A stretch of 64,000 nt of DNA from Patescibacteria group bacterium. GTDB taxonomy: Bacteria > Patescibacteriota > Patescibacteriia > Patescibacteriales > UBA12465. The notes beneath the pieces were generated by a model. It searched no databases and was not told where the DNA came from. It saw only the letters and a program-made list of their open reading frames with translations. Below, one piece after another: positions 7,010 through 63,678 of the stretch. The stretch spans positions 51,440 through 115,439 of the forward strand of contig JBMOHE010000001.1 of the NCBI GenBank assembly GCA_049318005.1, given 5' to 3'. Within the stretch, counting starts at the first letter, position 1, and every line of letters starts with the position of its first letter. Both the position numbers and the translations under genes were made by a program.

Positions 7010-7018
7010 AGCGGCTTA

Positions 7019-43361: not shown

Positions 43362-44305
43362 TATCTGATTCTAAAAACAAAAAATTACGACTTATTTTTA
43401 TGGGCACGCCGGAATTTTCCTTGCCCTCTTTATCAAGTCTAATTCGAAACGACGCCTATGAAATCGTCGGTGTTTTTACGCAACCAGATAAGCCAGTCGG
43501 TCGAGATCAAATAATTACCCCGCCACCAGTCAAACGCCTTGCCTTAGAAAATAATTTAAATGTTTTTCAGCCAGAAAAAATAAAAACCGAAGTAGAAACT
43601 ATAAAAAATCTAAAGCCCGATCTTATTGTTGTTGTCGCCTATGGAAAAATAATACCTCAAACAATTTTAGATATTCCAACTTTCGCCTGTATTAACGTCC
43701 ACGCTTCTCTTTTGCCTAAATATAGAGGTGCTGCCTGCTTAAATGCGCCTATTTTAAATGGTGACAAAAAAACCGGCGTAACTATAATGGTGATGGAGGC
43801 CGGTCTCGATACTGGTCCTATCCTTAGGCAAATTGAATTAGAGCTAAAAGGTCAAGAGAGCCTAGAAATTGTTCATGATAAATTATCTACGCTTGGAGCG
43901 GAGCTATTAATCTCAACCTTGAAAGATTTTGTTAAAGGAAAGATTTTTCCTCAAATTCAAGATGAGTCTAAGGCCAGCTATATCAAAACTTTAAGCAAGG
44001 AGGACGGAAGAATTGACTGGACTAAATCAGCTCAAGAAATAGAAAGAATGGTTAGAGCATATAATCCCTGGCCAGGAACATTTAGCTTAAACGATAATAA
44101 AATTATAAAAATTATTAGGGTTGAAAACGAAATATTAAAAGGCGATAATCATAAAATTGGCGAGTCTTTTGATAATAATGGACGTCTGGCTATACAGTGT
44201 GGACAAGATTCATTAGTTATACTAGAATTACAAGCAGCCGGGAAAAAGCCTATGGATAGTAAAAGCTTTTTAAGAGGCACTAAAATTGATGCTTTATTTG
44301 TCTAA
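43358..44305 (+). CDS. fmt: methionyl-tRNA formyltransferase
   Basis: FMGTPEFS, the INVHASLLPKYRGAA SLLP motif and a C-terminal formyltransferase domain. 4-nt overlap with def. Confidence 0.9.
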   Translation: MISDSKNKKLRLIFMGTPEFSLPSLSSLIRNDAYEIVGVFTQPDKPVGRDQIITPPPVKRLALENNLNVFQPEKIKTEVETIKNLKPDLIVVVAYGKIIPQTILDIPTFACINVHASLLPKYRGAACLNAPILNGDKKTGVTIMVMEAGLDTGPILRQIELELKGQESLEIVHDKLSTLGAELLISTLKDFVKGKIFPQIQDESKASYIKTLSKEDGRIDWTKSAQEIERMVRAYNPWPGTFSLNDNKIIKIIRVENEILKGDNHKIGESFDNNGRLAIQCGQDSLVILELQAAGKKPMDSKSFLRGTKIDALFV

Positions 44306-44381: not shown

Positions 44382-44601
44382 CTAATTAAAAAGTGCTCAG
44401 CGTTAGCTGGGCATTTTTTAATTAGACGGCGTTAGCCGAGGGGAATCGAACGGGTGGCAACGAGCTTAGCCGAAGGTCAGCAGACCGAGGCGTAGCGAGT
44501 GCCGACAAAAGCGAGCTGGCGCAGCTTTTGGCGCCACCCCTGGACAACGAAAGAACGAGCGACGGCGAGTGATTGAGGCGGAATTCCCCTAGGGACTACT
44601 A
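44376..44601 (+). repeat. left 226-bp direct repeat (attL-like), starts in the last 6 nt of tRNA-Glu
   Basis: GGACTACTAATTAAAAAGTGCTCAGCG...GAGGCGGAATTCCCCTAGGGACTACTA. I compared it base by base with 53815-54040 and found no difference. Confidence 0.85.
44388..44419 (+). terminator. tRNA-Glu terminator hairpin (inside the direct repeat; second copy at 53827-53858)
   Basis: AGTGCTCAGC-GTTA-GCTGGGCATT followed by TTTT. Its two G.U pairs form only on the plus strand. Confidence 0.6.
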
Positions 44602-46084
44602 TCGGAGAATTAGCACTTGCTAGTTCTCTTTTGTTTTGTAAAATTAGTGAAATTTTAGGTGTTTGATTTATTGAAAAATTGAAAGTTGGTTTTTCGGTAA
44701 AAATCAAACTCTGTAATTTAAGCTTATCTTGATAATCGGCTTTTTTATATAAAGCCGGAAGATTACTTAACACTTTAAAGACCTTATCTACTTCTTTAGT
44801 AATATTAAAATTCAAGTTAGGCTGATCGTAAACGATAGCCTGTTGATTTGAAATAGTGTTTTTGATTTTTTCCATCTCGTCTTTAAAATCTTCATCATCT
44901 AATAATTCTTTTTTCTTCATTTCAATTAGCTTGGCTTTTTCGTTTTGTAGTTCTGTTAATTTTTCTTTGGCTAATTTAATTTTATCAACTGATAAACTAC
45001 TAATATCTTTTATTACACTTTGCAAAACTTTTTTATAAACCATTAAAGTCTTTTCGCTTGGTGTTATTTTCATAAGGTAATCAAAAAACTCTCCCTCTAA
45101 CTTATCTTTAGAGATTGATTTTAAGCCTTTGCAGTCCTTGTTATAGCATTTATAGAACGGATAGAGCTTTCCGCTTTTACTTTTTGACATGCAGGCAGTT
45201 ATTGGACGATTACAATGAGGGCACAGTATAAAATGACGGAGCGGAAAAGTTTCATTAGGCGTACTAGCTGAAATATTATCGCCCTTGTTTCCGGTTTTAA
45301 TAAGTCTTTGGCATTTATAGAAAGTTGATTCGTCTATTAATGGTTTATGGGTGCCTTGATATTCTTCGCCTTTGACGGTCATAACTCCTAAATAGAATTT
45401 CTCGGTTAATATTTTAAATAGAGTTTGGCTAGTTAACTCTTTGCTCTTCCATGATTTGAATCCGGCTTTAATCATTAGCTGTCTAATCTCTTCCATTCTA
45501 TAAGCACCACTAGAGAATTTATTAAAAGCCATTTGAATAATCTCAGCTCTTGGTTTATCTATCGTTATAACGGCTCCATTTTGACCGTCTCGGCTATTTA
45601 TATAACCTAGTGGTGCTTTATAACACCAGATGCCTTGTTTAATTTTCTCAAGCATGCAAGAAGATACTCTTTCGCTCCTTACATCATTATCAAATTGAGC
45701 AAATGACGCCATAATAGTGCCGATTAGTTTTCCACTTGGTGTTTTATCAACTGTTTCAGTGGCAGAGATAAACTTAATTTGTAATTCTTCAAGAGCCATC
45801 AAAATAGTAGCGTAGTCTTTAACGTTTCTTGAGAGTCTATCTATTTTATAAACAATGACTGAATCAATATTTCTATAGTTCTTCTGACAATAACTTAATA
45901 ATTCCTGCAGTCCTTTGCGGTTAGTGGTTTTAGCTGATACACCATCGTCATGAAATAGTTTTGTGATTTCAATATCATGGTTTAAGGCATATTCTAAACA
46001 AGCCTTTTTCTGTTGCTCAAGACTGACTCCATTTTGAGCTTGGTCTTCGGTTGAAACTCGGTAATATATAATTCCTTTTGACAT
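44477..46084 (-). CDS. large serine recombinase
   Basis: I prefer the ATG at 46084 (MSKGIIYYRVSTEDQ, catalytic Ser). Resolvase domain (DRLSRN), recombinase domain, Zn ribbon CPHCNRP...YKCYNKDCKG and a coiled-coil tail. The last ~42 codons are encoded inside the direct repeat. Confidence 0.9.
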   Translation of the reverse strand: MSKGIIYYRVSTEDQAQNGVSLEQQKKACLEYALNHDIEITKLFHDDGVSAKTTNRKGLQELLSYCQKNYRNIDSVIVYKIDRLSRNVKDYATILMALEELQIKFISATETVDKTPSGKLIGTIMASFAQFDNDVRSERVSSCMLEKIKQGIWCYKAPLGYINSRDGQNGAVITIDKPRAEIIQMAFNKFSSGAYRMEEIRQLMIKAGFKSWKSKELTSQTLFKILTEKFYLGVMTVKGEEYQGTHKPLIDESTFYKCQRLIKTGNKGDNISASTPNETFPLRHFILCPHCNRPITACMSKSKSGKLYPFYKCYNKDCKGLKSISKDKLEGEFFDYLMKITPSEKTLMVYKKVLQSVIKDISSLSVDKIKLAKEKLTELQNEKAKLIEMKKKELLDDEDFKDEMEKIKNTISNQQAIVYDQPNLNFNITKEVDKVFKVLSNLPALYKKADYQDKLKLQSLIFTEKPTFNFSINQTPKISLILQNKRELASANSPIVVPRGIPPQSLAVARSFVVQGWRQKLRQLAFVGTRYASVC

Positions 46085-46260
46085 AGAATTAAGGTTAATA
46101 AATAAAAAGAAAGCGGTGAAACTGTCGGACACAACTTAGCAAAAAGCCTTGTTGAAACAGCCACCGCTTTCTTTATATCAAAACGACCTTAGTCGCTTGG
46201 ATGTAAAATATAGTGACTTCTTGCTTTATAAGTTGTGTCCATTAGAGATATTAGCATATA

Positions 46261-46428
46261 TTATGATTTATTCAATATTAGATTATTTTTTCTTTTATCT
46301 TGGTAATGGTACTTACAAGCCAAACTAACCAACTGATAGATATCTCGCCGAATAGCGATAATCTCGTCTTCAGAATAATCATTAGCGTAAACGCCAAGAT
46401 TCTTTCTGATAACTTCTAAACTTAACAT
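46261..46428 (-). CDS. possible 55-aa protein between rep and the recombinase (below the ORF-track cutoff)
   Basis: My translation is MLSLEVIRKNLGVYANDYSEDEIIAIRRDIYQLVSLACKYHYQDKRKNNLILNKS. Supported by the open frame only. Its position would suit an accessory or directionality factor, which is speculative. Confidence 0.3.
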   Translation of the reverse strand: MLSLEVIRKNLGVYANDYSEDEIIAIRRDIYQLVSLACKYHYQDKRKNNLILNKS

Positions 46429-46478
46429 ATCTTTGGGGGATATGTTTACATCAAAGGAACTTTCAAAGAGGATATTTG

Positions 46479-47282
46479 TTATCCGTTTTTATAGAGCTGA
46501 TAACTAACTCTTCCGACCCATTCGGATCGGTACCACTTATCGACTAACAATTCAGATGGCAATTCTAGAGCATCTATAAACTGTCTTACTTTTAGAGCAC
46601 TAATAACAGTTTCCGGTCTTTTGAGTTTGCGAGAGTAAAAGATTTTCTTCTTGCCAGAGAGTCTTCCGTCAAACAATTCTTTAGCAATGTATTTAGATAC
46701 GTATAAACCCACTCGGGACACATGGCGAATATTGTTGATTTTAATAAAACCATAGCTCCATATTTCTTCCAGCCTACTGCTAGCTGTATATGGTAAATTA
46801 GAGAGTAAATGATAGTGAACGTTTCCGCCGCTTTCTTTCTTTATCTTTGTCTTAAAGTAATAATCTCCTTGAAACTCTGGGACGGCTAAATAAAGTAAAT
46901 CAGGATAAAACCTTTTTAGCCTTTTAATAAAGTTAGAAAATATTAAATTGCATTCTCTCATGTCGGTAAATGAGCCAGTCTTTGATTTGCTATTATCAAA
47001 GGTTAAAGTAATAAATACTTTTAGCTCCGGATTGGAATTCACTAGACGAACAATATTGGCTTTTGTCCGTCTTAGAGAAAAATCGCTTTTTACCGCTTGG
47101 TTAAAATCTTCTTGGTCTTTTTCTTCTTCGCTTTTAACGTCTTCAACACTGAGCATTGGTCTTTTTTGTTTTCTCTTTTTTCTCTTATGCCCGACTCTAA
47201 TCGCTTGCTCATAATAGTAGATTTCTATTATATCGCCTGATCTGATTAGCTTGTGCCGATAAGCTCGGATTGGTAAATCCAT
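46479..47282 (-). CDS. rep: HUH-superfamily rolling-circle replication initiator (Rep)
   Basis: Motif I FITLTF, motif II (HUH) NVHYHLL and motif III YVSKYIAKE (catalytic Tyr), in the canonical order and spacing. Confidence 0.7.
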   Translation of the reverse strand: MDLPIRAYRHKLIRSGDIIEIYYYEQAIRVGHKRKKRKQKRPMLSVEDVKSEEEKDQEDFNQAVKSDFSLRRTKANIVRLVNSNPELKVFITLTFDNSKSKTGSFTDMRECNLIFSNFIKRLKRFYPDLLYLAVPEFQGDYYFKTKIKKESGGNVHYHLLSNLPYTASSRLEEIWSYGFIKINNIRHVSRVGLYVSKYIAKELFDGRLSGKKKIFYSRKLKRPETVISALKVRQFIDALELPSELLVDKWYRSEWVGRVSYQLYKNG

Positions 47283-47296
47283 ATGCTTACGGCGTT

Positions 47297-47551
47297 AAGT
47301 GTGCCTATAGTCAAGTTAATAGGGCTACAGGGCACACTTCTTCGTCTTAAATCTCATTTACCGACCGCCCCCATTTTCTTTTTTCGGCTCCCCCAAGGGG
47401 ATGCCGCCAAAAAAAGAAAAAAACGGGGGGCGACCGGTCAAAATATGTTTTACCCCTCAAAGGAACAAAAGGGGTATTTTTGGTCTTATGAGAATAGACC
47501 ACTCGGCCAAACAAAAAACACAAGCGATATATCCGGATATATTGCTCGTGT
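47297..47551. promoter_or_regulatory. palindrome-rich region upstream of rep: candidate replication origin (dso/sso)
   Basis: Four elements: AAGTGTGCC (47297-305)/GGCACACTT (47331-339); a ~80-bp imperfect palindrome 47360-47438 centred on CCCCAAGGGG with poly-T/poly-A arms and G/C-rich outer ends; TACCCCT/AGGGGTA (47451-476); and the 34-bp palindrome ACACAAGCGATATATCC/GGATATATTGCTCGTGT (47518-551). Confidence 0.4.
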
Positions 47552-47755
47552 TTATAGTTGAGTTGGCAAAGATTCAGACTTTGCTTATTATTATATTGAA
47601 GACTGCATTTTTAAATTCATGGACGTAATCTGACTAGCCGTAGCTAGGGTCTATCTTCCTGCCTTATTATTGTTGATTAATAAGTCTATGAGAGTACTAT
47701 AGCAGAAAATTAGGGGAAAATCAATGGGCGAATTTATTGGCAATTTTTAAAGCTT

Positions 47756-47956
47756 TTAATTACGAGGGTCTTCATAGCATGTTTCGTTGCCATATTTATC
47801 TTCATAACAACCATGATTCCCTACCTTAACCCCTTTATTTCCACTTAATCCGGAGATTAAGGTCCAAATCCAAAAACATATAAGAACAACCCCTACAATA
47901 TACCAAAAAATTTTTCCCCAATCTATTTCTTTACTCATATACTTCACGTTAATCAT
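47756..47956 (-). CDS. small single-pass membrane protein
   Basis: 66 aa with TM helix IFWYIVGVVLICFWIWTLISGL and a Cys/Tyr/Glu-rich tail. Confidence 0.4.
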   Translation of the reverse strand: MINVKYMSKEIDWGKIFWYIVGVVLICFWIWTLISGLSGNKGVKVGNHGCYEDKYGNETCYEDPRN

Positions 47957-47997
47957 CTATAAATTTAATAGAATAATATTATCTTAATTTACTATGA

Positions 47998-49308
47998 TTA
48001 ATAGCATTTTACTGAAATTGTACTCACTGCACCAGTGAACAATGTTGAATAGCAACGAATTGGCTTGTATGACCGCAAATTATTATTACTCTGATTTATT
48101 TGATTAATATAATCACTTTGTATTTTATCTTGAGCTACTTTTTGCCTTTCATAAGAAGAAACTGTCTGTAAAAGTTCCCAGTATTTTACCAAAGTAGAAT
48201 CTTCAAGTTTTATATAGCTATTAAAACTGTCCACGAGACTAGCAAAAAATGCAGGATCTGAGGTAGGAGCTTCATCAAATTTAGCATAAGCCTCTACAAC
48301 AGAATTATAAGTTTTAGCATCAATAAAATCGGTAATTTGAACTTCATCGGCTATACCTTTTAATTTTATAGCAGAAGATTTTTTTTCGCTTGATAAATTT
48401 GATAAACTATTTGCCTTTTCTTTTAGCGTGCTAATAGAAGAATTATAATAATTCCCAACATTATATACTATTTTAATAACCTCTAAATCACTAGATGTTA
48501 AAAAATTTGAATTACTATCCGACAAGCCCTGTAAATAACTAGCTCTTGAATTATATAAATCTTTTACTTTATCAATGTAATCTAATAAATACTCATTTTT
48601 CTCAGAATATTTACTTTGAATATTCGCAATGTCTTTTTTATAATTATTACTTTGTGATATTTCAGAATCGCTAGGTTTACAAACAGGGTCTCCCGATGAA
48701 GGGCAATAAAATTTCTTGTCATTTTGGCAAGGTTGCCACTTTTTCCCATTACAATCTAAAAGATTAGAAGTATTTTTATCCGCTGTAGTGGTTTTTATTT
48801 CACTAACTGCAACTGAGCCACCGGCGTTATTGCTTATAGCAGAACTAGAAGTTGCACTTTGCTTATTTGATGATATCTTTTCAATATCTTTATTGGAAAT
48901 ACCTAAGCCTAAATTCCTCATTGCCGTATAAGCCTCTGAGCCATTTTTCAAATAATGAAGATTACCAGAAAAATCAACATAATAAGCCTCGCCTTTTGAT
49001 TCTACTTGTAAAAATATTTTTCCTTTGTGTTTTGAAGCTGCCGTCTTGCTGTTTTTCAATTTTTCCAAATCGCTATTTGTAATTCCAACTCCTAAATTAC
49101 GCATTATATTGTAAGCCTCATCTCCATTTGCCATGTAGTACTTTTCGGCAGTAGACGGATGAACATAATAAGCCTCACCCCTCGATTCTACTTGTAATAT
49201 TATCCTCCCTTTGAGCTTTTGTGCGATAGATGGAGTAGCTGCATTCGCCGGCAATGACGAGAACAGTGTTAACAATAACACCAACATAATTAAAATTTTT
49301 TGTTTCAT
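47998..49308 (-). CDS. secreted protein with duplicated N-terminal ~50-aa domain
   Basis: Signal peptide. KGRIILQVESRGEAYYVHP..YYMANGDEAYNIMRNLGVGITNSDLEKL is repeated as KGKIFLQVESKGEAYYVDF..HYLKNGSEAYTAMRNLGLGISNKDIEKI. The C-terminal 270 aa are unassigned. Confidence 0.55.
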   Translation of the reverse strand: MKQKILIMLVLLLTLFSSLPANAATPSIAQKLKGRIILQVESRGEAYYVHPSTAEKYYMANGDEAYNIMRNLGVGITNSDLEKLKNSKTAASKHKGKIFLQVESKGEAYYVDFSGNLHYLKNGSEAYTAMRNLGLGISNKDIEKISSNKQSATSSSAISNNAGGSVAVSEIKTTTADKNTSNLLDCNGKKWQPCQNDKKFYCPSSGDPVCKPSDSEISQSNNYKKDIANIQSKYSEKNEYLLDYIDKVKDLYNSRASYLQGLSDSNSNFLTSSDLEVIKIVYNVGNYYNSSISTLKEKANSLSNLSSEKKSSAIKLKGIADEVQITDFIDAKTYNSVVEAYAKFDEAPTSDPAFFASLVDSFNSYIKLEDSTLVKYWELLQTVSSYERQKVAQDKIQSDYINQINQSNNNLRSYKPIRCYSTLFTGAVSTISVKCY

Positions 49309-49569
49309 ATTTTTAAATATATTTTTTACACAAAAGGTCTTCCGAAACGGTTAACACACCCTTTCGGATATGCGCCTAGATAGCGAAAACCGGTCAGAAG
49401 ACCATCTCTGCTATCTAGGACTTAAGCCATGCCTTAATAAATTAAGGTTTAGGCCTATTAATTGTACTTAAAATTTATCAAAAAAAGGCCAAAAAGTCAA
49501 TTTATAACTTTTTGACTATTTATATATAGGGTAGTATTATTTAATCAATATTAATTCAAATAACCTTTT

Positions 49570-50019
49570 ATGCAAGATATATTACTAACCTCTAGTTTTA
49601 CAATAATCGGCGGTGTGATTATATTCGTTTTAGGTCAAATAATTGATAGATTTTTAATAAAACCAATTTTTGATCAAAAACAGATAATTGGAGAAATTCT
49701 TGATGCTTTAATTTTTTACGCAAATATTTATTCAAATCCATACACAACAGGTGACCAGAGCAAACACGACGATGCATCTCACAGAATTAGAGGGTTAGCA
49801 TCTAGTTTATTAGTAAAAACTAATTTAGTGCCTGGATATAAACTATTAAGCAAACTTAGAGTAACGATAAAAAGAGATAATATATCAAAGGCTCATACAG
49901 AATTAATAAGACTATCGAATTCGTTATATAGTCACCATTCTCAAGTAATAAATATTGGAATGCAAAATTCCGACACCGCAAACACGATAAAGAAATATCT
50001 CAATAACAATTTTAATTAA
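49570..50019 (+). CDS. hypothetical protein with N-terminal TM helix
   Basis: 149 aa with SSFTIIGGVIIFVLGQII as the TM helix. First of three co-oriented island genes that end with the Abi_2 neighbour. Confidence 0.45.
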   Translation: MQDILLTSSFTIIGGVIIFVLGQIIDRFLIKPIFDQKQIIGEILDALIFYANIYSNPYTTGDQSKHDDASHRIRGLASSLLVKTNLVPGYKLLSKLRVTIKRDNISKAHTELIRLSNSLYSHHSQVINIGMQNSDTANTIKKYLNNNFN

Positions 50020-50143
50020 TTTTTTGGCAATAAAAAAACCTATCGGGTTCGCATGGGCTTCGCAGCCCAGAGGCGTGATAGGTATTGATAATTAAAGTAT
50101 ACATTAATTTGCATAATGTCGCAATAAGATATTGTGGATAAAT

Positions 50144-51046
50144 ATGAAAGAGACTAATATTAAGCTAAAATATGACAAAAAACCATTAACCCTTGATGAG
50201 CAGGTAGGTCTTTTGAAAACCAGAGGGCTAATAATAGAAAGCGAGGAAGAGATAATATATTATTTAACAAATCTAAGCTATTATCATCTTTCTATTTATT
50301 TTAAATATTTTCAAAAAGACGATAAATTTTACGAAGGAATTACGTTCGGAGATATTTTGCGAATTTACATATTTGATAACAAGCTTCGATTTCTTTTATC
50401 TGAGGTGCTAGAGAGAATAGAAAAATCATTCAAGTGCAGGATGGTTTATTCATTATGTGTAGAAGAAGATGATTCTCACTGGCATTTAAATCAAAAATTT
50501 TTTGATTCTGAAGATAATTACTTAGGAATTATAAATATAATAACAGAAAACATTGATAAAAGTCGTGAATTGAGCATATTGCATTATAAGGAAACGTATT
50601 GTGACCCAGTTTTACCACCAATCTGGACAACGCTAGAAATCCTTTCTTTTGGACAATGCTGCCATATATATAATTCATTAAAAAAAGAATACAGAAATAA
50701 AATTTCCAGATCTTTTGGAGAAGATGAAAAGTTCATAAATAATTGGATGCTATGTTCATCTTTATTAAGAAACCATTGTGCTCACTATTCTAGACTGTGG
50801 AACAGAACTTTAACATATACACCAAAAATGAATCATGATTCATATAAAAAATACTTTAATAATGGAAATAAACGGATATATAATTATTTAGTTGTTTTAC
50901 AAATACTATTAAATGAAATAAACCCAACATCATCCTGGTTAGACAAATTAAAGGAACTCATAAATGAATATAAAATTAATGTTAAACAAATGGGTTTTCC
51001 GGAGGATTGGGAAAATAAATTAAAAGAAATAATTACAAATAAGTAA
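50144..51046 (+). CDS. Abi_2 family (AbiD/AbiF-like) abortive-infection protein
   Basis: PLTLDEQVGLLKTRGLII, LSYYHLSIYFKYF, ITFGDILRIYIFDNKLRFLL and LRNHCAHYSRLWNR (HEPN-type R-N-x-x-A-H). The track start at 50132 is a TTG; I prefer the ATG at 50144. Confidence 0.85.
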   Translation: MKETNIKLKYDKKPLTLDEQVGLLKTRGLIIESEEEIIYYLTNLSYYHLSIYFKYFQKDDKFYEGITFGDILRIYIFDNKLRFLLSEVLERIEKSFKCRMVYSLCVEEDDSHWHLNQKFFDSEDNYLGIINIITENIDKSRELSILHYKETYCDPVLPPIWTTLEILSFGQCCHIYNSLKKEYRNKISRSFGEDEKFINNWMLCSSLLRNHCAHYSRLWNRTLTYTPKMNHDSYKKYFNNGNKRIYNYLVVLQILLNEINPTSSWLDKLKELINEYKINVKQMGFPEDWENKLKEIITNK

Positions 51047-52157: not shown

Positions 52158-52619
52158 TTATTTTATAAGGCGAGAACAATTATTTTTTCCATAGATTCTA
52201 TTCATGCATCCTTGACGAGAAAAAAGATCATTTAAACCAATCACATCAACTAAATATCCAGCAATAATTATGGCGGCCACAAAGCCAACTATAACTATTT
52301 TAAAATTTATTTTATAGGAGAAATCATATTTACGGATTAACCTTAATCCGATTACTAATCCTAGAAATGCTAATATTACCGCCCACCAAGGAAAACTCGC
52401 TAACAGTTGTTCAAAGCGATATTGCCCCATCGGACCGTGTGAACGCAAAGAAAATCTAATCAGACCAAAAAGAAAGACGGAGCTTAGAGCTGATAATATT
52501 AAACTAACAAAAACTAAAACCGAACCAATAATAAAATATAGCTTGGGACGCATTTTTAACTTTCCGTGACGAATTTCGCCCATTATACTATCGGAAATAT
52601 TTTTTAATTCTTTTGACAT
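52158..52619 (-). CDS. membrane protein, putative anti-sigma partner (island copy)
   Basis: Overlaps the sigma gene by 16 nt. The N-terminal GEIRHGKLKMRPKLYFIIG, then TM helices, parallel 1697..2500 (KIKECKICPKPRWQFLL). Confidence 0.45.
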   Translation of the reverse strand: MSKELKNISDSIMGEIRHGKLKMRPKLYFIIGSVLVFVSLILSALSSVFLFGLIRFSLRSHGPMGQYRFEQLLASFPWWAVILAFLGLVIGLRLIRKYDFSYKINFKIVIVGFVAAIIIAGYLVDVIGLNDLFSRQGCMNRIYGKNNCSRLIK

Positions 52620-53146
52620 ATACGTTTAATTAATGTTTTTGCTCTACTTATGCGGGTAGCGACCGTTCCCATCGGCAGTCTCAAAATATCGCTTATTTCT
52701 TCATAAGATTTTTCGTCAATATAATATAAGCGCAACGGTTCGGCATACAACAAAGGCATCTTGGCAAAGCATTTTTCAACTTTAGACGCAATTTCTTGTT
52801 TTTCAAAATTTAACTCAAGATCTTCCTCACTCTTAAAATCTATATTTTCTAAAATTGGCACCTCTCTTCTGTATTTTTTAGCGATATTTATGGCTTCATT
52901 ATGAACAATACGATAAATCCAGCTAGAAAATTTTTTTTTAGTATTAAAGCCCCGTAAATTTATAAAGGCCTTTATAAAAGATTCCTGAACAATATCAGCG
53001 GCATTATGCTCATCTTGAATTAAATTAGTTGCATAACGCAAAAGCTTTTCTTGATATCTTTCTATAATAACAGCATAAAACTCCTGATCTTCAGATCGGA
53101 CGCGCTCAATAATTTCTTCATCAGAAAGTAAGCTATTTTCACTCAT
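52604..53146 (-). CDS. RNA polymerase sigma-70 factor, ECF subfamily (island copy)
   Basis: FSSWIYRIVHNEAINIAKK (region 2) and SYEEISDILRLPMGTVATRISRAK (region 4). Paralog of 2504..3100. Confidence 0.85.
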   Translation of the reverse strand: MSENSLLSDEEIIERVRSEDQEFYAVIIERYQEKLLRYATNLIQDEHNAADIVQESFIKAFINLRGFNTKKKFSSWIYRIVHNEAINIAKKYRREVPILENIDFKSEEDLELNFEKQEIASKVEKCFAKMPLLYAEPLRLYYIDEKSYEEISDILRLPMGTVATRISRAKTLIKRICQKN

Positions 53147-54901: not shown

Positions 54902-56323
54902 ATGAATTTATTAAAACTCATATCAAGCGAAGAGATAATTGGTGGTCTAGAAATAGCTGACGACAGCCTACGTTTTATTTTACTTAAAAACAATAAAACA
55001 GAAATTGAAACAAAGCTTATTTGCGAAGAAAAGTTATCACCTAAAGAGAGTTTAGCTAATTTAGATTTGTTTTTAAAAAAACTATCTATCTTTGTAAAAC
55101 AAAACCATATCAAATACACAATTATCTCCCTTCCCGCCGACAATATTTTTTTAAAGCTCTATAAATTCCCTGTGGCAATTCCAGATGAAAAAATAAGCGA
55201 ATCAATGAAATTAAATATAGATCTGCAATTACCAAAGAAAAAAGAAGATATTTATTGCGACTGGATGAAATTAGAGAAAACAGAAACTAGTCAAAAAGTT
55301 CTCCTCTCCTACATTAAAAAAGATTACGCTCAAAAACTATTTGCAATTTTTAAGAAAGCTGGAGTAAAAATAATCGCCGTAGAAACACATGCTCTGAGTC
55401 TTTCAAGGACAATAAAACAAATTCCCGGCGAAGCTCTCTTAATAGTTGAAAGATCCTATGATAATACTTCTTTTTCTGTTTTAGAAAATAATAACTTAGT
55501 TTTTTTACAAAATTCTCCAAACGAAAAAATAAGCAAAAATCTAAACGAAGAAATTGAAAAAATTGTTAATTTTCACGATTGGGGGGATATAGTAATTAAA
55601 AAATTATTTTTAATAGGTGATTTTTCTGAAAAAGAAACAAAGAATTTACCAATAAAAATAAGCTCTTTAAAAGAAGAAGTCGAGGATAAAAAACAAGCTC
55701 TAGACAAAAAATGGCTAATTTCTTTAGGAGCGGCAAAGCGCGGCTTAATACCAAGAAAAGATGACAACATAATCAGCTTAATGGAAATTGGAACAGAAAA
55801 AGCCTACAAACAAGAAAAAGCGAACATTAGCGCAGATTTTTTTATGGGAATTAGCATTGCTCTTTCGATATTTTTTATAGCTATATTTTTTACTACCTGG
55901 TCATTTATCTCGATGATGCAAGGAAATTATAATAAACGAATTAGCTCCTTAAGCCTATTGCCTGGGTCAGAAAACGGCGTATTACTAAAAGAAAAAGCAG
56001 ATATTTTTAACAACTTAATATCGGAAACTAAACAATTAACACAGACTGAAGCTCGCTGGAGTAAGGTAATTGAAGAAATAAAAAATAAGTTAAGCCAGGA
56101 TATAAAAGTTAGCACCCTATCTTTACCAAGTGCAGATGGAATCTTTACAATAACAGGCACGGCTCTAAATCGGGAATCAATTAATAGCCTAAAAAAATCG
56201 TTTGAATCATCAAATTTATTTTCTGATATAGATATTCCTTTAAATAATCTTGGCAAAAAGAACGATATCCCCTTTTCAATGACTTTCAAAATTAAAGATA
56301 GCCAATTAATCTACACAAAATGA
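54902..56323 (+). CDS. PilM-like actin-fold pilus assembly protein fused to a PilN-like TM segment
   Basis: N-terminal IGGLEIADDSLRFILL, SLPADNIFLKLYKFPVAIPDEKISESMKLNIDLQLP and AVETHALSL are PilM-like. A TM helix FFMGISIALSIFFIAIFFTTW at about aa 310 is followed by a PilN-like periplasmic region. Confidence 0.55.
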   Translation: MNLLKLISSEEIIGGLEIADDSLRFILLKNNKTEIETKLICEEKLSPKESLANLDLFLKKLSIFVKQNHIKYTIISLPADNIFLKLYKFPVAIPDEKISESMKLNIDLQLPKKKEDIYCDWMKLEKTETSQKVLLSYIKKDYAQKLFAIFKKAGVKIIAVETHALSLSRTIKQIPGEALLIVERSYDNTSFSVLENNNLVFLQNSPNEKISKNLNEEIEKIVNFHDWGDIVIKKLFLIGDFSEKETKNLPIKISSLKEEVEDKKQALDKKWLISLGAAKRGLIPRKDDNIISLMEIGTEKAYKQEKANISADFFMGISIALSIFFIAIFFTTWSFISMMQGNYNKRISSLSLLPGSENGVLLKEKADIFNNLISETKQLTQTEARWSKVIEEIKNKLSQDIKVSTLSLPSADGIFTITGTALNRESINSLKKSFESSNLFSDIDIPLNNLGKKNDIPFSMTFKIKDSQLIYTK

Positions 56324-56886
56324 AACTCATCAACACTAATTTCAAAATTAAAATAATTTCGAAAATAATAATTATTATTGGTGTTCTTTTGCCCGCCCTT
56401 ATCTCAATATATTTTTTTAGCCAACAAATTAAAAAAATAAATATTAGCTTAATGGAAAGAAAGGAAATGGATTATATTGTTTCTAATCAGGAAGCTATAA
56501 ACACTAAAATAAGAAGTGAATTTTCACAAGTAGACCCGGAATACAAAGAAAAAATTATTAGCTCACTACCATCGGTTTATAACATTCTTGATTTTGTTGA
56601 TGCAATGGAAAGCCTTGCAATAAAACATTCTTATAAACAAAGCTTGAGCTTCTCTCCCCCAGTAGACGCGCCGGAAATTAACGGGCTAATATCAGTTAAG
56701 GCGATTAATTTCAATTTAATAATCAATGAAACTAATCTCGAGAATTTCATCTCTTATTTAAAAGAATTTGAAGGCCTACCTTACTTTGTTTCAATTACTA
56801 GCATAAACCAAGCAAGCGTTAGTCTTGATGGTTTGCAAAAAAACTCTTCAATTAATATCAGTGGTCGTCTATATGCAAAACAATAA
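56320..56886 (+). CDS. PilO-like bitopic membrane protein
   Basis: 4-nt overlap with the PilMN gene. N-terminal TM helix, a coiled segment and an alpha/beta C-terminus. Assigned by architecture and position. Confidence 0.4.
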   Translation: MKLINTNFKIKIISKIIIIIGVLLPALISIYFFSQQIKKINISLMERKEMDYIVSNQEAINTKIRSEFSQVDPEYKEKIISSLPSVYNILDFVDAMESLAIKHSYKQSLSFSPPVDAPEINGLISVKAINFNLIINETNLENFISYLKEFEGLPYFVSITSINQASVSLDGLQKNSSINISGRLYAKQ

Positions 56887-57550
56887 TCAAATTAATAAAA
56901 CAAAACGAACGGAGCGCGAAGAAATTGTCTACGCGACTATTTTTGTTTTATACTTCGGTTTTATTATTTTAATTTTTGCTTATTCTGTTAAATTCTTAGG
57001 AGAAACGATAAACGCTGTTTTAAGTGATCCTCAGGGAAAAGCTAACGAAGAAAGTTACGGCCAGCTTAATCTTGAATCCTATTTATTAATTAGCGATAAA
57101 CTAAAATTAAACAATGCAATAAACAATAATAATTCAGATAAAGAATTATTAAATAGAGCCATTGCCACTTCAAGCGAAGAGATAATGAATAAGGAGGTGA
57201 TCGCAACTAGTTCAGATTTAAGCATAAAAGATGAAATTTCAAATAATACTTTAGATTCTATTGTTGAGGAAATTAGACCGACTATTATTGTGATGAATTC
57301 AACTGTAAAGTCTGGTCTAGCCTCAAAGTTAAAAACAAAACTTGAGAAGGCTGGTTTCACTGTTTTAAAATCAGGCAACCTAAAACCGACTAAAGACATT
57401 AGTATAATTTATTTAAGTAAATCATTTGATCAAAACTCTAAATATCTTTTTGAAATAAAAAAAATCGTTTCTGAAGATTACAACTTCGTGATTCTTCCTC
57501 TTGAAAACGATTCTCAATCAGACATCCAAATAATAATCGGAAATCAATAA
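56873..57550 (+). CDS. membrane-anchored LytR_C-domain protein
   Basis: I prefer the ATG at 56873 (MQNNNQ). TM helix, then C-terminal IIVMNSTVKSGLASKLKTKLEKAGFTVLKSGNLKPTKDISIIYL, which matches the LytR C-terminal domain pattern. Confidence 0.5.
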   Translation: MQNNNQINKTKRTEREEIVYATIFVLYFGFIILIFAYSVKFLGETINAVLSDPQGKANEESYGQLNLESYLLISDKLKLNNAINNNNSDKELLNRAIATSSEEIMNKEVIATSSDLSIKDEISNNTLDSIVEEIRPTIIVMNSTVKSGLASKLKTKLEKAGFTVLKSGNLKPTKDISIIYLSKSFDQNSKYLFEIKKIVSEDYNFVILPLENDSQSDIQIIIGNQ

Positions 57551-57983: not shown

Positions 57984-58514
57984 CTAAAAATCTTTATTCA
58001 AATTAAAACTTGTTTTTTGGCTCTGGGAATAATTTAAATCTGTGCTAGAGCTATTATAAGCACCAGAGATATTAACTTCTACTCCAACTATTTTTTTTCC
58101 TAAAATAGAATTAGAGTTTTCTAAACGTGTAAACTGTAAATTACTAATCTTTATTAAATCTGAGCTAATATACTCGGCTGCCTGACTATTAATTTGACGA
58201 GTAACTCGATTAGCATTTATTGTATATTTAATAGATTCACCATTAACCATTAAGTCTAAGGTAGTCGAACTTGTGCTTGCTACTAAAGGTATATTTAAAT
58301 TACTAGCCATTAAAATATCTCTCTTTATTTTTGAACTAACAAAATTAAAATTTGAGTTTAATTCACTTTTAGCTTGAACATTAGAACCGCCTTTATTCAA
58401 AAGCAAAAAAGTATTTGATAAAACAACCGACATAACTAACAAAACAGCTAGATACAAAATCAGCTCCATTAAAGTGAATGCGGCTAAAGATTTTTTTTTG
58501 AAATTATTATTCAT
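57984..58514 (-). CDS. prepilin-type N-terminal cleavage/methylation domain protein (pseudopilin)
   Basis: KKKSLAAFTLMELILYLAVLLVMSVVL is the class III signal (A/G)-F-T-L-x-E with a hydrophobic helix. Confidence 0.7.
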   Translation of the reverse strand: MNNNFKKKSLAAFTLMELILYLAVLLVMSVVLSNTFLLLNKGGSNVQAKSELNSNFNFVSSKIKRDILMASNLNIPLVASTSSTTLDLMVNGESIKYTINANRVTRQINSQAAEYISSDLIKISNLQFTRLENSNSILGKKIVGVEVNISGAYNSSSTDLNYSQSQKTSFNLNKDF

Positions 58515-58517: not shown

Positions 58518-61500
58518 TTAAGGGCTCCAGCTAATCATAACTTCATTAACTTGAGGCGTATACTCTCCGCCATTAGAGCAATCCGAGGAACAAATTCTTA
58601 TTTTATATCTAAAATATCTCTTATTATTATGGTTATTATAGCAACCAATTGATGTTGGAAAATCAGGATCGTTGGAATACCAATCATCTGCATCTCCGGT
58701 GCAGACTGTTCCGAAATAATTCCAAGGACCGCTAGGATTATCTGAGCTGGCTATTTGAAATAATATTATGCCCTGGTTAAGTGCTGGGCCTCCATAATTT
58801 CCTCGCCACATAATTGAGTTATAAGCGGGACCATCGGCGACTCCAGTTGTGTCAAAAATAATTGAAGTTAATTCTCCGTAAGCTGGGTATCCAACTACGA
58901 CACCACTAGGTATTTTCCACGCCACATAATAATAAACACCAGAGCTTGAATTAACCGCAGTGTCAATTCCAAGTTGAAAGCCATTAGTTATAAAAGCTTT
59001 TATCATGCCAGCTGTCAGCGGGTAGGCTTCAAAAGATTGAGTTAAGTTACCAACTAACGTTATTGGTCTTTGGACGGCAGCGATAGCTGTATTTCTTTTA
59101 ATCCAAACTAGATCCGGATCAAAGCCAGGATCAGTGATACTTAAATTATCAACGCCAGTTCCTGTGTATTTTCCAACTTTAAAATTAGCACTATTTTTAA
59201 AGCCGAAAAAATAATAATAAAATCCGAAGCTATTAGTATTTGAACTGAGTCCCACCTGAAAACCATTAGCACTAAAACTTTGCAAACTATTAAGAAAATC
59301 AGCCCTACTTGAAAAAAAACTACTATTATTAATACCGTGACTTGACGTTCTAAAGCTGCTACGAGTTGCAGTGGGTCCGCCCACAACCACCATATCAGCT
59401 TGAAATGGAAAACGAGAAATTAATTTAGTGTTGTAGGAACCATAATAAGCGCCAATATAAAAATCACTAGCTCCGGAATTTTTTTCTGGGTTCCATGCAT
59501 TACCGAATGCCTGCCAGTGATAAACAGTTCCGGCTGTATTTGTAGTTACATGATTATAAACAGTAAAACCATCTGAATTAATAGACGTTACAGCGCCAGC
59601 ATAAGAAGAATTAACGGAAAAATCAAGAGTAACATCACCACCAATTAACGAGGTTCTAAAAACACTAGACTGAGCTTGATCCGATCTTACGATCACTAAA
59701 TCGGGCTTGAAATCTAAACCGGTAATATTTAAGTATTGCCCAGTACCAGTATAAGTGCCTTCAGCCATTTTATAAGTGCCGCTTGAATTGCGCGTATCTA
59801 TTGCTCCTCCAAAAGCAACATAATAAATAATATTTCCAGAACCATTAGAAGTTGAATTAATTCCAACCTGAAAACCATCGGTTTGAAGAGCTTGGATAGA
59901 GTCAACTAAATTAGCGGTAGCCGCAAAATAACTAGAACTATCTCCATACGATTCATCGGTACTAAAAACCCCAGAAACTGCAGTGGCCGCATTAGCATTT
60001 TTCAAAAATACAAAATCAGGCACAAAACCAACTCCAGTTATATTTCTGTTATCAGTGGCGTTCCCTGTATAAGTGCCAACATTAACTGAACCGGCGACTG
60101 ATTTAAAAGCGGCAAAATAATATACTCCACCTGAAGCACTGTTAGTGGTCCCAACTGAAAAGCCAGTTGCATCAAGCGTTGTAAAGAGAGCTCCGGCCGT
60201 ATTCTGAGTTGTGGCCATAAAATATTGGCCGGCATTCGCAGGCATAGCCGACGAACGCCAATTGGCCGCTACGGCCGTACTCTGTTTAACCATTACCAGA
60301 TTTGGTTGAAAGCCTACTGGAACGGCTTTGGCCGCGCCAGTGCCAGTATATGAACCAACACAAAATGTTCCAGTGGCTGAGCAGTCTGAACCGGCAAAAG
60401 CTGTCCAGGTATAACCAACATTAAGTGTGTTAGTGATTGTACCAACAACAGAAAATCCGTCGCTATTAATTACTATAGACGCTCCAGAATTATCAGCAGT
60501 TGCGGAACCTAAGTAAGCAGTATTTAAAGTTGGCATAGCACTAGTTTTAAAAACTCCAGCACTAGCCGTCGTGTTTGATTTAATAATAATCATTTCTGGT
60601 TTAAAGCCAAGGCCGGAAATAGATTTAGCGCCACCGTTACCAACATAATAACCTGTTTGAATTTTATAAGAAGGCGGAGTTGTGTTTTGAGTAGAATTTT
60701 TTTTCCAAGCTACATAAATATAAACACCAGTTGCCAGGTTAACTTCAGTTCCTGTTCCGAGTTGAAAACCGTTAGTTACAAAAGCTTTAATTTTTCCCGC
60801 TGCTTGAGCGCTTGCCGTAAAATATTGTGTCAAATCTCCTGTCAGAGTTCTAGGTCTTTGGACACCAGCGACATTCGTATTTCTTTTAATCCAAACTAAG
60901 TCAGGATCAAAGCCGGGATCAGTAATACTTAAATTATTAACTCCATTTCCTGTGTATTTCCCGACTTTAAAATTAGTTCCATTTTTAAAGCCAAAGTAGA
61001 AAAACATCCCGGCTGCACTATTAACACTGGTGCTGTTCCCTGTCTGAAAACCATCAGCACTTAAAGATTGAATATGGTTGGCGACGTCAGCCGTCGCTCC
61101 ATAAGTACTAGTTAAGTCGCCCACATGACTTGAGGTTCTAAAAACACCAACTACGGATGCGCTAGAAACTTTTACGGCCAACATGTCCGCTTGAAATGGT
61201 AAGCGAGTAATGTTTCTATTATCTAGCCCGTTTCCATAATAAGCTCCAATATAAAAATCACCGGCTCCAGAATTTGTTTCCGGACTCCAAGCATTTCCAA
61301 ATGCCTGCCAATGATAAACAGTTCCAACCGTATTTGTGGTTACATGATTATAAACAGTAAAGCCATCGGGATTAATAGAGCTAATCGCACCAATAATATT
61401 ACCAGTAGCCGAATCTAAATAAGCGGTTGAATCTCCGCCCATTAGTGATGTTCTAAATACACCAACTACCGCCGTACTTGCTTTTACAATCACTAAGTCT

Positions 61501-62702
61501 GGCTTAAAATCTAAGCCAGTAATATTTAAATACTGCCCCGTACCAGTATAAGAACCTTCGGCCATTTGATAAGCACCACTAGCGTTTCTAGTATTATTTG
61601 TTCCGCCAAAAGCAGCGTAATATATAATATTTCCAGAACCATTAGAAGTTGAATTAATTCCAACCTGAAAACCATCGGTTTGAAGAGCTTGGATAGAGTC
61701 AACTAAATTAGCGGTAGCCGCAAAATAACTAGAACTATCTCCATACGATTCATCGGTACTAAAAACCCCAGAAACTGCAGTGGCCGCATTAGCATTTTTC
61801 AAAAATACAAAATCAGGCACAAAACCAACTCCAGTTATATTTCTGTTATCAGTGGCGTTCCCTGTATAAGTGCCAACATTAACTGAACCGGCGACTGATT
61901 TAAAAGCGGCAAAATAATATACTCCACCTGAAGCACTGTTAGTGGTCCCAACTGAAAAGCCAGTTGCATCAAGCGTTGTAAAGAGAGCTCCGGCCGTATT
62001 CTGAGTTGTGGCCATAAAATATTGGCCGGCATTCGCAGGCATAGCCGACGAACGCCAATTGGCCGCTACGGCCGTACTCTGTTTAACCATTACCAGATTT
62101 GGTTGAAAGCCTACTGGAACGGCTTTGGCCGCGCCAGTGCCAGTATATGAACCAACACAAAATGTTCCAGTGGCTGAGCAGTCTGAACCGGCAAAAGCTG
62201 TCCAGGTATATCTTACGTTATTTGTGTTACCGACAGCTGTCGTAACACTAAATCCATCACTATTAATAATGATTAGGCCAGTTGTGTTGTCGGCTGTTGC
62301 TACGCCTAAATAAGCAGTATTTAAAGATGGCATAGCGCTAGTTTTGATAACTGCGCTTCCGGCCGATGTATTTGATTTCAAAATAACCATTTCTGGCTTA
62401 AATCCCAAACCACTAATTGATTTAACGCCACCGTTACCGATATAATAACCTGTTTGGATTTTATACGTAGCGGCTTCAGCCTTATTAACACTAGGAGTTA
62501 AAAGATTGGCCATTTTTTTATCAATTACATTTGAGTCATTGAGAGACAAATATAATGAATCAACTATATTTCCATCACTTATAGTCTTCGCAATTTTTTT
62601 CAAAAGCATCTCAGAAGGAAATCCGGAAATAAAAAAGACTAGCATTAAAAAAATTCCTAATGTTTTACGAAAGAAAATTCTATTTTTGTGAAATATAATC
62701 AT
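58518..62702 (-). CDS. giant (1394 aa) membrane-anchored repeat protein: 12 x ~100-aa modules + Cys-rich C-terminal domain
   Basis: Single long ORF with N-terminal TM helix GIFLMLVFFISGF. Modules have the recurring signature Y-x-G-x-G...I-[TS]-G-[LV]-G-F-x-P-[DE]-x-V-x-[IV]-K...T-S...D-G-F-x-V...Y-[YHI]-[WYF]-x-A-F. The last ~125 aa carry 6 Cys. Confidence 0.8.
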   Translation of the reverse strand: MIIFHKNRIFFRKTLGIFLMLVFFISGFPSEMLLKKIAKTISDGNIVDSLYLSLNDSNVIDKKMANLLTPSVNKAEAATYKIQTGYYIGNGGVKSISGLGFKPEMVILKSNTSAGSAVIKTSAMPSLNTAYLGVATADNTTGLIIINSDGFSVTTAVGNTNNVRYTWTAFAGSDCSATGTFCVGSYTGTGAAKAVPVGFQPNLVMVKQSTAVAANWRSSAMPANAGQYFMATTQNTAGALFTTLDATGFSVGTTNSASGGVYYFAAFKSVAGSVNVGTYTGNATDNRNITGVGFVPDFVFLKNANAATAVSGVFSTDESYGDSSSYFAATANLVDSIQALQTDGFQVGINSTSNGSGNIIYYAAFGGTNNTRNASGAYQMAEGSYTGTGQYLNITGLDFKPDLVIVKASTAVVGVFRTSLMGGDSTAYLDSATGNIIGAISSINPDGFTVYNHVTTNTVGTVYHWQAFGNAWSPETNSGAGDFYIGAYYGNGLDNRNITRLPFQADMLAVKVSSASVVGVFRTSSHVGDLTSTYGATADVANHIQSLSADGFQTGNSTSVNSAAGMFFYFGFKNGTNFKVGKYTGNGVNNLSITDPGFDPDLVWIKRNTNVAGVQRPRTLTGDLTQYFTASAQAAGKIKAFVTNGFQLGTGTEVNLATGVYIYVAWKKNSTQNTTPPSYKIQTGYYVGNGGAKSISGLGFKPEMIIIKSNTTASAGVFKTSAMPTLNTAYLGSATADNSGASIVINSDGFSVVGTITNTLNVGYTWTAFAGSDCSATGTFCVGSYTGTGAAKAVPVGFQPNLVMVKQSTAVAANWRSSAMPANAGQYFMATTQNTAGALFTTLDATGFSVGTTNSASGGVYYFAAFKSVAGSVNVGTYTGNATDNRNITGVGFVPDFVFLKNANAATAVSGVFSTDESYGDSSSYFAATANLVDSIQALQTDGFQVGINSTSNGSGNIIYYVAFGGAIDTRNSSGTYKMAEGTYTGTGQYLNITGLDFKPDLVIVRSDQAQSSVFRTSLIGGDVTLDFSVNSSYAGAVTSINSDGFTVYNHVTTNTAGTVYHWQAFGNAWNPEKNSGASDFYIGAYYGSYNTKLISRFPFQADMVVVGGPTATRSSFRTSSHGINNSSFFSSRADFLNSLQSFSANGFQVGLSSNTNSFGFYYYFFGFKNSANFKVGKYTGTGVDNLSITDPGFDPDLVWIKRNTAIAAVQRPITLVGNLTQSFEAYPLTAGMIKAFITNGFQLGIDTAVNSSSGVYYYVAWKIPSGVVVGYPAYGELTSIIFDTTGVADGPAYNSIMWRGNYGGPALNQGIILFQIASSDNPSGPWNYFGTVCTGDADDWYSNDPDFPTSIGCYNNHNNKRYFRYKIRICSSDCSNGGEYTPQVNEVMISWSP
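58898..62471 (-). repeat. two tandem 1797-bp (599-codon) super-repeats inside the giant gene
   Basis: aa ~78-676 align with aa ~677-1275 (ATYKIQTGYYIGNGG.. versus PSYKIQTGYYVGNGG..). The track's identical shadow ORFs 60038..60235 and 61835..62032 give the 1797-bp period. 61624-62210 is identical to 59827-60413. Confidence 0.85.
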
Positions 62703-63678
62703 AGGCTGATTTTGAAATCTCTCTCATTATCTCTTTAGCTCTATCCACGCCGCCACCATCTTCAATCTCAACCATAACGGTAACAAGATAGGGTCGATTA
62801 GGCACATAAACTATTCCTGAATCAAGAAAGACAACTTCTTTAAATTCTTCGCCAATCTTATGTGAAAATTTTACATCACTAGATATACCCGAACCCAAAA
62901 ATTCGTTAAAACTACTTTCTGATAACCATTTTAAAATCTGCTGAGAGTCATTACGATTTAAATAACTTGCATTATACAAAGATCTAAAAATACGAGAATA
63001 TTCTTTAGCAGTAATATTATAATCAGCATTGAATAATTCTTCCATTCCTAAAGCGGCAAACATTTTATCATATTCTTCACTACTCAAATTACGGACCAAA
63101 ATTTTATGAGCCGTATTATCAGAATTAATTAAAGTTTCCCTTACTAATTCCTCAATTGTAAACTTCGTGCCAACTGGCTTTTTATACAACTCGCCAAACC
63201 TATCATCCTTGTCTTCTTCAAATAAAATTAACTCATTAGATAATTTCCATTTTCCATCCTCAACTCTTTTCATCACAACAAATATAGTTGGCATTTTACT
63301 TAACGATGCTGGCCAAAAACGAGCATCCTGGTTTATAGAAACATTGGCGCCAGTATTTAAAAATTCAAAATATACCCCAATTCTGTGACCATTTTTTTCA
63401 TATTTCGCAACGATTTCTTTCATTTGTTTACGAACTGGCTCGATTGTACTAAAAAAATCATCCTGGCTAACGATACTACGGGCTGGATCTAAAAAATTAT
63501 AATGATTAATTTCTTTCTTAACTGCGTTAAAGTCACTTTTTTTAATTAAAAAATAAGTAATTAAAGCGGAGGCTAAAACTATAAAAATAAATAATAAAAT
63601 ATATGAAATTACATTTTTTTTAAAACCTATTTTTTTTACTTGAGTATCTATAATATTATTTTTAAATTTGTGGCTCAT
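62680..63678 (-). CDS. membrane-anchored class-A beta-lactamase-like serine hydrolase
   Basis: N-terminal TM helix, S-x-x-K (ASLSKMP), SDN (INSDNTA) and a KTG-like HKIGE, in class-A order. Its stop overlaps the giant gene's start by 23 nt. Confidence 0.6.
   Translation of the reverse strand: MSHKFKNNIIDTQVKKIGFKKNVISYILLFIFIVLASALITYFLIKKSDFNAVKKEINHYNFLDPARSIVSQDDFFSTIEPVRKQMKEIVAKYEKNGHRIGVYFEFLNTGANVSINQDARFWPASLSKMPTIFVVMKRVEDGKWKLSNELILFEEDKDDRFGELYKKPVGTKFTIEELVRETLINSDNTAHKILVRNLSSEEYDKMFAALGMEELFNADYNITAKEYSRIFRSLYNASYLNRNDSQQILKWLSESSFNEFLGSGISSDVKFSHKIGEEFKEVVFLDSGIVYVPNRPYLVTVMVEIEDGGGVDRAKEIMREISKSAYDYISQK

Follow-up and report, generated by a model that had tools for sequence, protein, structure and literature searches.

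The DUF7483 gene and its repeat architecture

We analyzed a 64,000-nucleotide (nt) stretch of contig JBMOHE010000001.1 from an ultrasmall Patescibacteria group bacterium (assembly GCA_049318005.1; hereafter the window, to which all positions refer unless another locus is named). Our subject is a gene for a repeat protein of the DUF7483 family, in which two tandem, strongly diverged 1.8-kb units share a block of 587 identical base pairs, probably as the result of recent gene conversion. The gene product is 100% identical to NCBI MFZ4631688.1, annotated as 'MAG: beta strand repeat-containing protein [Patescibacteria group bacterium]', and the Pfam family PF24299 (DUF7483) matches it in six stretches with 212.1 bits against a cutoff of 27. 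The same family is carried by all top homologues of the protein. No plus-strand frame is open across the gene region. The peptides quoted in an earlier sequence-only reading of this DNA (YTWTAFAGSDCSATGTFCVGSYTGTG, NGSGNIIYY, KASTAVVGVFRTSLMGGDSTAYLD and RSDQAQSSVFRTSLIGGDVTLDFS) were all found in the minus-strand translation. That reading spoke of a giant gene; it is the largest open reading frame (ORF) in the window, but at 1,394 amino acids (aa) it is not giant, and its strand is the minus strand. The parts of the gene are as follows, with the basis of each call in parentheses.

58518..62702, minus strand: DUF7483 repeat protein gene, 1394 aa (ORF list, translation, Pfam)
62466..62702, minus strand: N-terminal region, aa 1-79 (read from the translation)
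60669..62465, minus strand: super-unit 1, aa 80-678, 599 codons, six ~100-aa modules m1-m6 (unit and module alignment)
58905..60668, minus strand: super-unit 2, aa 679-1266, six modules (unit and module alignment)
58521..58904, minus strand: C-terminal domain, ~128 aa, with Cys residues, YGELTS...ISWSP (translation)
61624..62210, minus strand: block copy in unit 1, codons 165-359 plus 2 nt, probable recipient (direct comparison)
59827..60413, minus strand: block copy in unit 2, codons 764-958 plus 2 nt, probable donor for at least the N-terminal two thirds (direct comparison)

The whole protein thus holds 12 all-beta DUF7483 modules of ~100 aa each, arranged as 2 x 6. Modules inside one unit are 25-40% identical among themselves, and unit 1 and unit 2 are 76, 100, 95, 74, 48, and 67% identical in modules 1-6, in that order. 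The two 599-codon (1,797-bp) units of the sequence-only reading hold for unit 1; three one-codon deletions make unit 2 shorter, so that the offset between the units in the DNA drifts from 1797 to 1794, 1791, and finally 1788. The six-module unit itself looks like an older duplication of a three-module segment, as it matches itself at 35% identity with a shift of ~298 aa (tblastn of unit 1 against the window, 61571-59811), and the length of this segment fits the 330-position Pfam DUF7483 model. Together, these observations suggest a repeat hierarchy of roughly 100, 300, 600, and 1200 aa.

The N-terminus begins with a basic start followed by a hydrophobic segment (aa 14-28, TLGIFLMLVFFISGF, nt 62619-62663), which ends in a GFPS motif that is conserved in the homologues and in their consensus. 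We read this segment as a putative signal or membrane anchor. The prepilin G|F/M-T-L-x-E (class III) motif is absent from the N-terminus (MIIFHKNRIFFRKTLGIFLMLVFFISGFPS), so the protein is not a pilin or minor pilin; the Pfam N_methyl domain likewise gave no match in it. An AlphaFold2 model of aa 679-1394 (unit 2 and the C-terminus) reached a mean predicted local distance difference test score (pLDDT) of 84, with most values in its six all-beta modules exceeding 90. The C-terminal domain, which is conserved in the closest relatives only, was modeled poorly (pLDDT <50).

An identical block between diverged units

The sequence-only reading had claimed base-for-base identity between two segments of the gene, and direct comparison agrees: 59827-60413 equals 61624-62210 at 587/587 positions, with an offset of 1797. 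The positions directly outside each end differ (59826/61623 and 60414/62211), and the run is therefore exactly 587 bp long. It begins at the last beta-strand of module 1 (YTWTAF), takes in the whole of module 2, and ends where the final strand of module 3 starts (NIIYY). In the codon alignment of the two units, this amounts to 195 consecutive codons without a difference (aa 165-359 and 764-958). At the protein level, the identity is two residues longer (198 aa), as the first mismatched codon (ATT/ATA) is synonymous. Tandem Repeats Finder, whose longest period is 500, did not detect the repeat, and blastn and tblastn searches of the 64-kb window with the block and the unit recovered no silent cassettes or extra copies beyond the two in the gene.

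The remainder of the two units is as diverged as had been claimed, with 371 nucleotide differences over the other ~400 aligned codons (69% identity). When the 355 mismatches in the aligned 1764 nt were shuffled 10,000 times, the longest identical run never exceeded 59, compared to the 587 observed, and the naive probability of such a run at 69% identity is ~1e-95. Between unit 1 and unit 2, the number of synonymous substitutions per synonymous site (dS) is 1.04 to the left of the block and 1.16 to its right, and the ratio of non-synonymous to synonymous change (dN/dS) in these flanks is ~0.22. In the block, dS is 0 over 145 synonymous sites, with a rough upper bound of 0.02, or ~1/50 of the flank value. 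Because the flanks are near saturation at synonymous sites and the block shows no synonymous change, the units must be old paralogues under purifying selection, and the block must be much younger.

Orthologues place the block in one lineage

We compared the DNA of the closest relatives.

P0003 (locus L001): 79% aa identity to the window protein; two units, 73% identical in nucleotides; zero-difference runs of at most 8 codons; block-region dS 1.15
P0002 (locus L003): 69% aa identity to the window protein; two units, 74.5% identical in nucleotides; zero-difference runs of at most 8 codons; block-region dS 1.07
P0004 (locus L002): two units, no difference over 589 aligned codons
P0022 (locus L004): one unit

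In the left flank, window unit 2 matches its P0003 counterpart at 93% identity and unit 1 of its own gene at 71%. In the block, the two units of the window are 100% identical to each other and 81-87% identical to the P0003 units. Judged from these identities, the flank and block groupings are phylogenetically incongruent. An aberrant module 5 of unit 2 is also common to the window and P0003. The incongruence and the shared module together indicate that the duplication predates the split of the two lineages and that the block is a derived state of the window's lineage. The tandem duplication of units is thus shown by the available alignments to be old, and the recent recombinational homogenization of diverged super-repeats that the sequence-only reading had proposed is supported both by the block dS of 0 and by the absence of the block from P0003 and P0002. 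Scans of GTDB genomes and JGI metagenome contigs for the same species or close strains returned only relatives with at most 79% aa identity.

The block also differs from its surroundings in composition, with 44% G+C against 38% in the rest of the gene. GC-biased gene conversion was considered as a cause and rejected, as an equal rise (44-45%) occurs in P0003, where the identity block is absent. Because the rise is shared in this way, the higher G+C of the block reflects amino-acid composition.

Unit turnover across the family

A wider survey covered the 120 best homologues, 66 of which are at least 1300 aa long. Exact protein repeats of at least 100 aa at an offset of 592-608 were present in 14 of these 66; most comprise the whole unit, and some are partial. 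In one genome (Candidatus Falkowbacteria S5_I03, locus L006), the two units differ by 7 mismatches in 1766 positions and are thus 99.6% identical. Five of these seven differences cluster at codons 653-658. The same gene (L006 6001-10185) and its one-unit counterpart at L009 (6001-8391) lie in collinear sequence that is 86.5-87.3% identical over 16 kb except for an extra unit of 1794 bp, so the L006 duplication is younger than the split of these two genomes. Exact partial DNA blocks beside diverged sequence were found in two distant members of the family, with lengths of 1025 bp (P0013, L047) and 1487 bp (P0037, L048).

These comparisons show unit duplication, loss, and partial homogenization to be recurrent across the DUF7483 family. 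The sequence-only reading had predicted a route to module gain and loss, and the relatives bear this out, since they carry one unit (P0022) or two and include diverged, near-identical, and partly homogenized states. It had also called for repeat number and identity blocks to be compared among relatives, and this comparison found both variation and mosaicism. For relatives with perfect whole-unit repeats on NODE_-type contigs, the unit number is a minimum. More generally, the unit number and exact repeat sequence of DUF7483 genes in short-read metagenome-assembled genomes are untrustworthy without long reads. As a separate observation, the DUF7483 homologue in a complete Saccharibacteria genome (CP064992.1; L017 5950-8361) appears to be split into three overlapping ORFs (5950-6762, 6932-7732, and 7597-8361); it is either a pseudogene or affected by frameshift errors.

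Gene conversion as the probable source of the block

We consider the 587-bp block to be a recent intragenic gene-conversion tract between the two tandem 1.8-kb units of one gene, with a probability of roughly 0.85. An old tandem duplication produced the two units, which then diverged to near-saturation at synonymous sites. With the units misaligned, a heteroduplex or repair event (non-reciprocal homologous recombination, presumably through a RecA-type pathway) would later have copied sequence from one unit over its counterpart in the other, replacing module 2 together with the end of module 1 and most of module 3. Because the identical patch is internal and its surroundings are diverged on both sides, it calls for non-crossover conversion or two successive unequal crossovers rather than a single unequal crossover. 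As a mechanism, gene conversion among the tandem repeats of a surface protein is well known. New are the family, the organism, and the indication that duplication, loss, and homogenization of units, and possibly lateral exchange of fragments, occur routinely in DUF7483 genes.

The direction of transfer can be approached through P0003. Of the two P0003 units, unit 2 is the better match to the block (87.2% identity, against 81.0% for unit 1), and where these units differ, the block agrees with unit 2 at 71 sites and with unit 1 at 35. The unit-2-like sites cluster in its N-terminal two thirds. Similarity between window unit 2 and P0003 unit 2 is continuous over the 60413 edge (0.91, then 0.87), and similarity between window unit 1 and P0003 unit 1 jumps at the corresponding 62210 edge. 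Since the block resembles P0003 unit 2 and only unit 2 is continuous across the N-terminal edge, unit 1 was likely the recipient, at least over the N-terminal two thirds of the tract. Older patches, for example, module 6 of window unit 1, which resembles unit 2, indicate a history of repeated exchange between the units.

Several points weigh against this reading. The direction is ambiguous in the C-terminal third of the block, where similarity to P0003 is continuous in unit 1 and not in unit 2. Both the base-perfect identity and the unit number (two or more) are taken from the assembly itself, and de Bruijn-graph assemblers can pop bubbles between near-identical copies and traverse a repeat loop once. 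Moreover, two successive unequal crossovers, with expansion to three units followed by contraction, give the same end product.

The assembly is accordingly the first alternative to be weighed: the copies might not be truly identical, or not so arranged, owing to a collapsed or duplicated repeat path or to joined strains. An exact repeat of 587 bp is longer than short-read k-mers and forms a loop in the assembly graph, several of the relatives with perfect repeats lie on SPAdes-style NODE_... contigs in which loop traversal sets the copy number at a minimum, and no second contig of the same species turned up in the GTDB, JGI, or viral contig scans. Still, the junction between the tail of unit 1 and the head of unit 2 (~60668/60669), together with the distinct flanks of the two block copies, needs a gene with at least two units, and the ancestral state seen in orthologues, at ~79% nucleotide identity here, is too divergent for bubble-popping. 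An artefact could therefore hide only a few single-nucleotide differences or undercount the units. The seven mismatches retained between the L006 units indicate that collapse is not universal, and the same phenomenon recurs in independent assemblies and projects. Given this evidence, we judge an artefact unlikely.

Two sequential unequal crossovers between sister chromosomes, expanding the gene to three units with hybrid junctions and then contracting it to two, could reach the product [L1-B-R1][L2-B-R2] as well. Unit number does change in the family, including one vs. two units between 87%-identical genomes, and the lengths of some homologues suggest three-unit forms. However, this route requires two events with breakpoints exactly at the block edges, which is less parsimonious than one conversion tract, and a three-unit intermediate was not seen in the close clade; we regard it as improbable. 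That selection has preserved the identity, through nucleotide constraint, an embedded element, or a need for identical protein segments, is scarcely credible: modules 2-3 are indeed the most constrained (between-unit dN/dS of 0.08-0.11 in relatives vs. 0.13-0.23 in flanks), but the synonymous sites of this region have diverged almost to saturation between the two units of P0003 and between those of P0002 (dS ~1.1), so protein or nucleotide constraint cannot explain the identity, the window block differs from the orthologues at 13-26% of positions, so there is no conserved DNA element, and the raised G+C occurs in P0003 without any identity block.

A fragment possibly exchanged between lineages

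Gene conversion within the gene may not be the only exchange recorded here, as one part of unit 2 is unexpectedly similar to P0003.

59830..60668, minus strand: unit 2 modules 1-3 patch, ~0.85 kb, candidate inter-lineage fragment (vs. L001 12030-12870)

This patch is 84-95% identical in nucleotides to P0003/L001 unit 2, with a dS of 0.24 in module 1 and 0.47 in the block region. By contrast, the flanking genes of the window and L001 have a dS of at least 1.16 and are 55-80% identical in nucleotides. This contrast suggests that divergent lineages exchanged a piece of the gene and that some of it was later copied into unit 1. Neither a phage nor a third-party donor was found for the patch, and the viral contig scan gave no close viral relative of the block.

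The pilus locus and neighboring genes

The gene is surrounded by the following features, with the plus or minus strand given where it was recorded.

62680..63678, minus strand: membrane-anchored class-A beta-lactamase/PBP-like gene (Beta-lactamase2, E 6e-39), upstream of the DUF7483 gene (Pfam, synteny)
57984..58514, minus strand: downstream gene, 176 aa (conserved synteny)
56825-57550: 241-aa gene with a LytR_C domain (order shared with L001-L004)
56320-56886: 188-aa gene after the PilM/PilN-like gene (order shared with L001-L004)
54902..56323, plus strand: PilM/PilN-like type IV pilus assembly gene (domain match, same arrangement in L001-L004)

In all close relatives, the order is pilin, T2SSE (PilB), T2SSF (PilC), N_methyl protein, an ORF, the beta-lactamase-like gene, DUF7483, and two small ORFs, with the PilM/PilN-like gene on the opposite strand. 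The window contains the PilM/PilN-like and beta-lactamase-like genes and is collinear with the relatives up to its end. Within the close clade, the comparison of gene order shows the DUF7483 gene to be a conserved component of a type IV pilus locus. The beta-lactamase/PBP-like gene shares 23 nt with the start of the DUF7483 gene and keeps its position in all close relatives; it is an unusual partner for pilus genes and might remodel peptidoglycan locally. The 176-aa downstream product was considered as a minor pilin, and we make no such claim for it, as its ComGF match is sub-threshold (E 7.7e-4, 19.7 bits vs. a cutoff of 80).

Farther away, 44477-51046 is a probable integrated small mobile element, flanked by fmt (43358-44305) and a sigma factor gene of the ECF type (52604-53146). 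At 50-52 kb, the G+C content drops to 0.28. The element includes four genes.

44477-46132, minus strand: large serine recombinase
46479-47282, minus strand: REP_ORF2-G2P replication-associated protein
47998-49308, minus strand: 436-aa protein
50132-51046, plus strand: Abi_2 abortive-infection-like gene

Elsewhere in the window, a single ORF at 31406-33016 (minus strand) joins a Glycos_transf_4 domain to a QueH (epoxyqueuosine reductase) domain, and two ClpB-like AAA+ genes lie back to back (33020-35713 on the minus strand and 36895-39537 on the plus strand).

What the protein may do

Searches with the structural model and the sequence point to proteins of phages. Foldseek matched the model to phage DUF7483 proteins with E values of 1e-39 to 1e-27, at a sequence identity of only 15-20%, and PHROGs returned phrog_24898, 'tail fiber protein', at E 2e-37. 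Taken together with the locus and the N-terminal segment, our analysis suggests that the DUF7483 protein is probably an anchored extracellular adhesin or host-recognition protein working with the pilus. Lectin-like proteins of pilus loci, such as PilX1/PilX2 of Nanosynbacter lyticus TM7x, have been proposed as host-binding factors in Saccharibacteria (PMC11623550). That study describes the PilX1/PilX2 adhesins and nothing recognizably the same as the DUF7483 protein.

Other results limit this reading. A tblastn search of the Saccharibacteria relatives with the pilus proteins of the close clade found nothing, and pilus linkage there is only hinted at by one Pfam check, which placed an N_methyl pilin and a LysM/WxL-type wall-binding protein near the DUF7483 homologue. 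A search of the PDB by sequence gave no match to the protein. Fold matches in the PDB were weak, with template modeling (TM) scores of at most 0.3, e.g., to the three-fold beta-prism APC-beta domains of apicomplexan perforin-like proteins, and we did not use them. A literature search retrieved no paper mentioning DUF7483. Furthermore, conversion between units homogenizes as much as it shuffles, and any adaptive value of unit turnover is presumptive, as are the surface location and the adhesin role.

The conversion event itself is unsurprising and textbook biology; its value lies in the context of family and organism. DUF7483 is a widespread, little-studied family in a Patescibacteria type IV pilus locus, and it has modules in common with phage tail fibers. 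With its unit turnover and a hint of exchange between lineages, the protein is a reasonable candidate for host attachment and specificity in a group where host recognition is largely unknown.

Comparison with known systems

Among pilus-associated proteins, the closest likeness is to PilY1 of Pseudomonas and to PilX1/PilX2, as each is a large, beta-rich, lectin-like protein encoded in a pilus locus. However, PilX1/PilX2 combine a pilin-like N-terminal domain with a single accessory domain, whereas the DUF7483 protein has 12 modules and no recognizable pilin domain. The resemblance to PilX1 and PilY1 is one of locus and description.

The Neisseria pilE/pilS system offers a parallel in process, in that an expressed gene associated with type IV pili receives a tract by non-reciprocal transfer. 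Here, by contrast, the donor is the other half of the same gene rather than a silent cassette (in the 64-kb window), the protein is not a pilin, and programmed machinery is not evident. Cassette-based antigenic variation of the pilE/pilS, vlsE, or msp2 type is likewise not indicated, as there are no donor cassettes outside the gene in the 64-kb window. Nor does the block resemble the target of a diversity-generating retroelement, in which template and variable repeats differ at adenines, as its two copies are without any difference.

Repeats of Gram-positive surface proteins are under concerted evolution, including those of alpha C/Rib in Streptococcus agalactiae, the G5-E repeats of SasG/Aap, and those of Esp/Bap. 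Like these, the DUF7483 gene has in-frame tandem repeats within one gene whose DNA identity arises via intragenic homologous recombination, and its repeat number varies between close relatives, here one vs. two units. Yet the unit here is ~1.8 kb long, contains six modules, and is present in only two copies. The units are also old (dS ~1.1), so that the event left a discrete tract rather than uniform identity, and the host is one of the Patescibacteria, with an uncharacterized DUF7483 fold family and no known link to immune escape.

Phage tail-fiber and receptor-binding proteins (PHROG 24898; BFVD A0A6J5QL19, 'DUF7483 domain-containing protein') belong to a homologous module family. It is a speculative and rather doubtful possibility that the DUF7483 protein is a pilus host-recognition adhesin evolving like a tail fiber, through unit duplication and loss, intragenic conversion, and the import of fragments from divergent lineages. 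The last of these elements is included because the 0.85-kb patch of unit 2 has a dS of 0.24-0.47 vs. at least 1.2 in the flanking genes. If this were true, DUF7483 genes would be host-range determinants of the episymbionts of the candidate phyla radiation (CPR), and their mosaic structure would record host switches. The shared features are a modular architecture and evolution through module exchange and duplication; unlike the genes for phage tail fibers, the DUF7483 gene here is chromosomal, lies in a pilus locus, and encodes a putative N-terminal membrane anchor.

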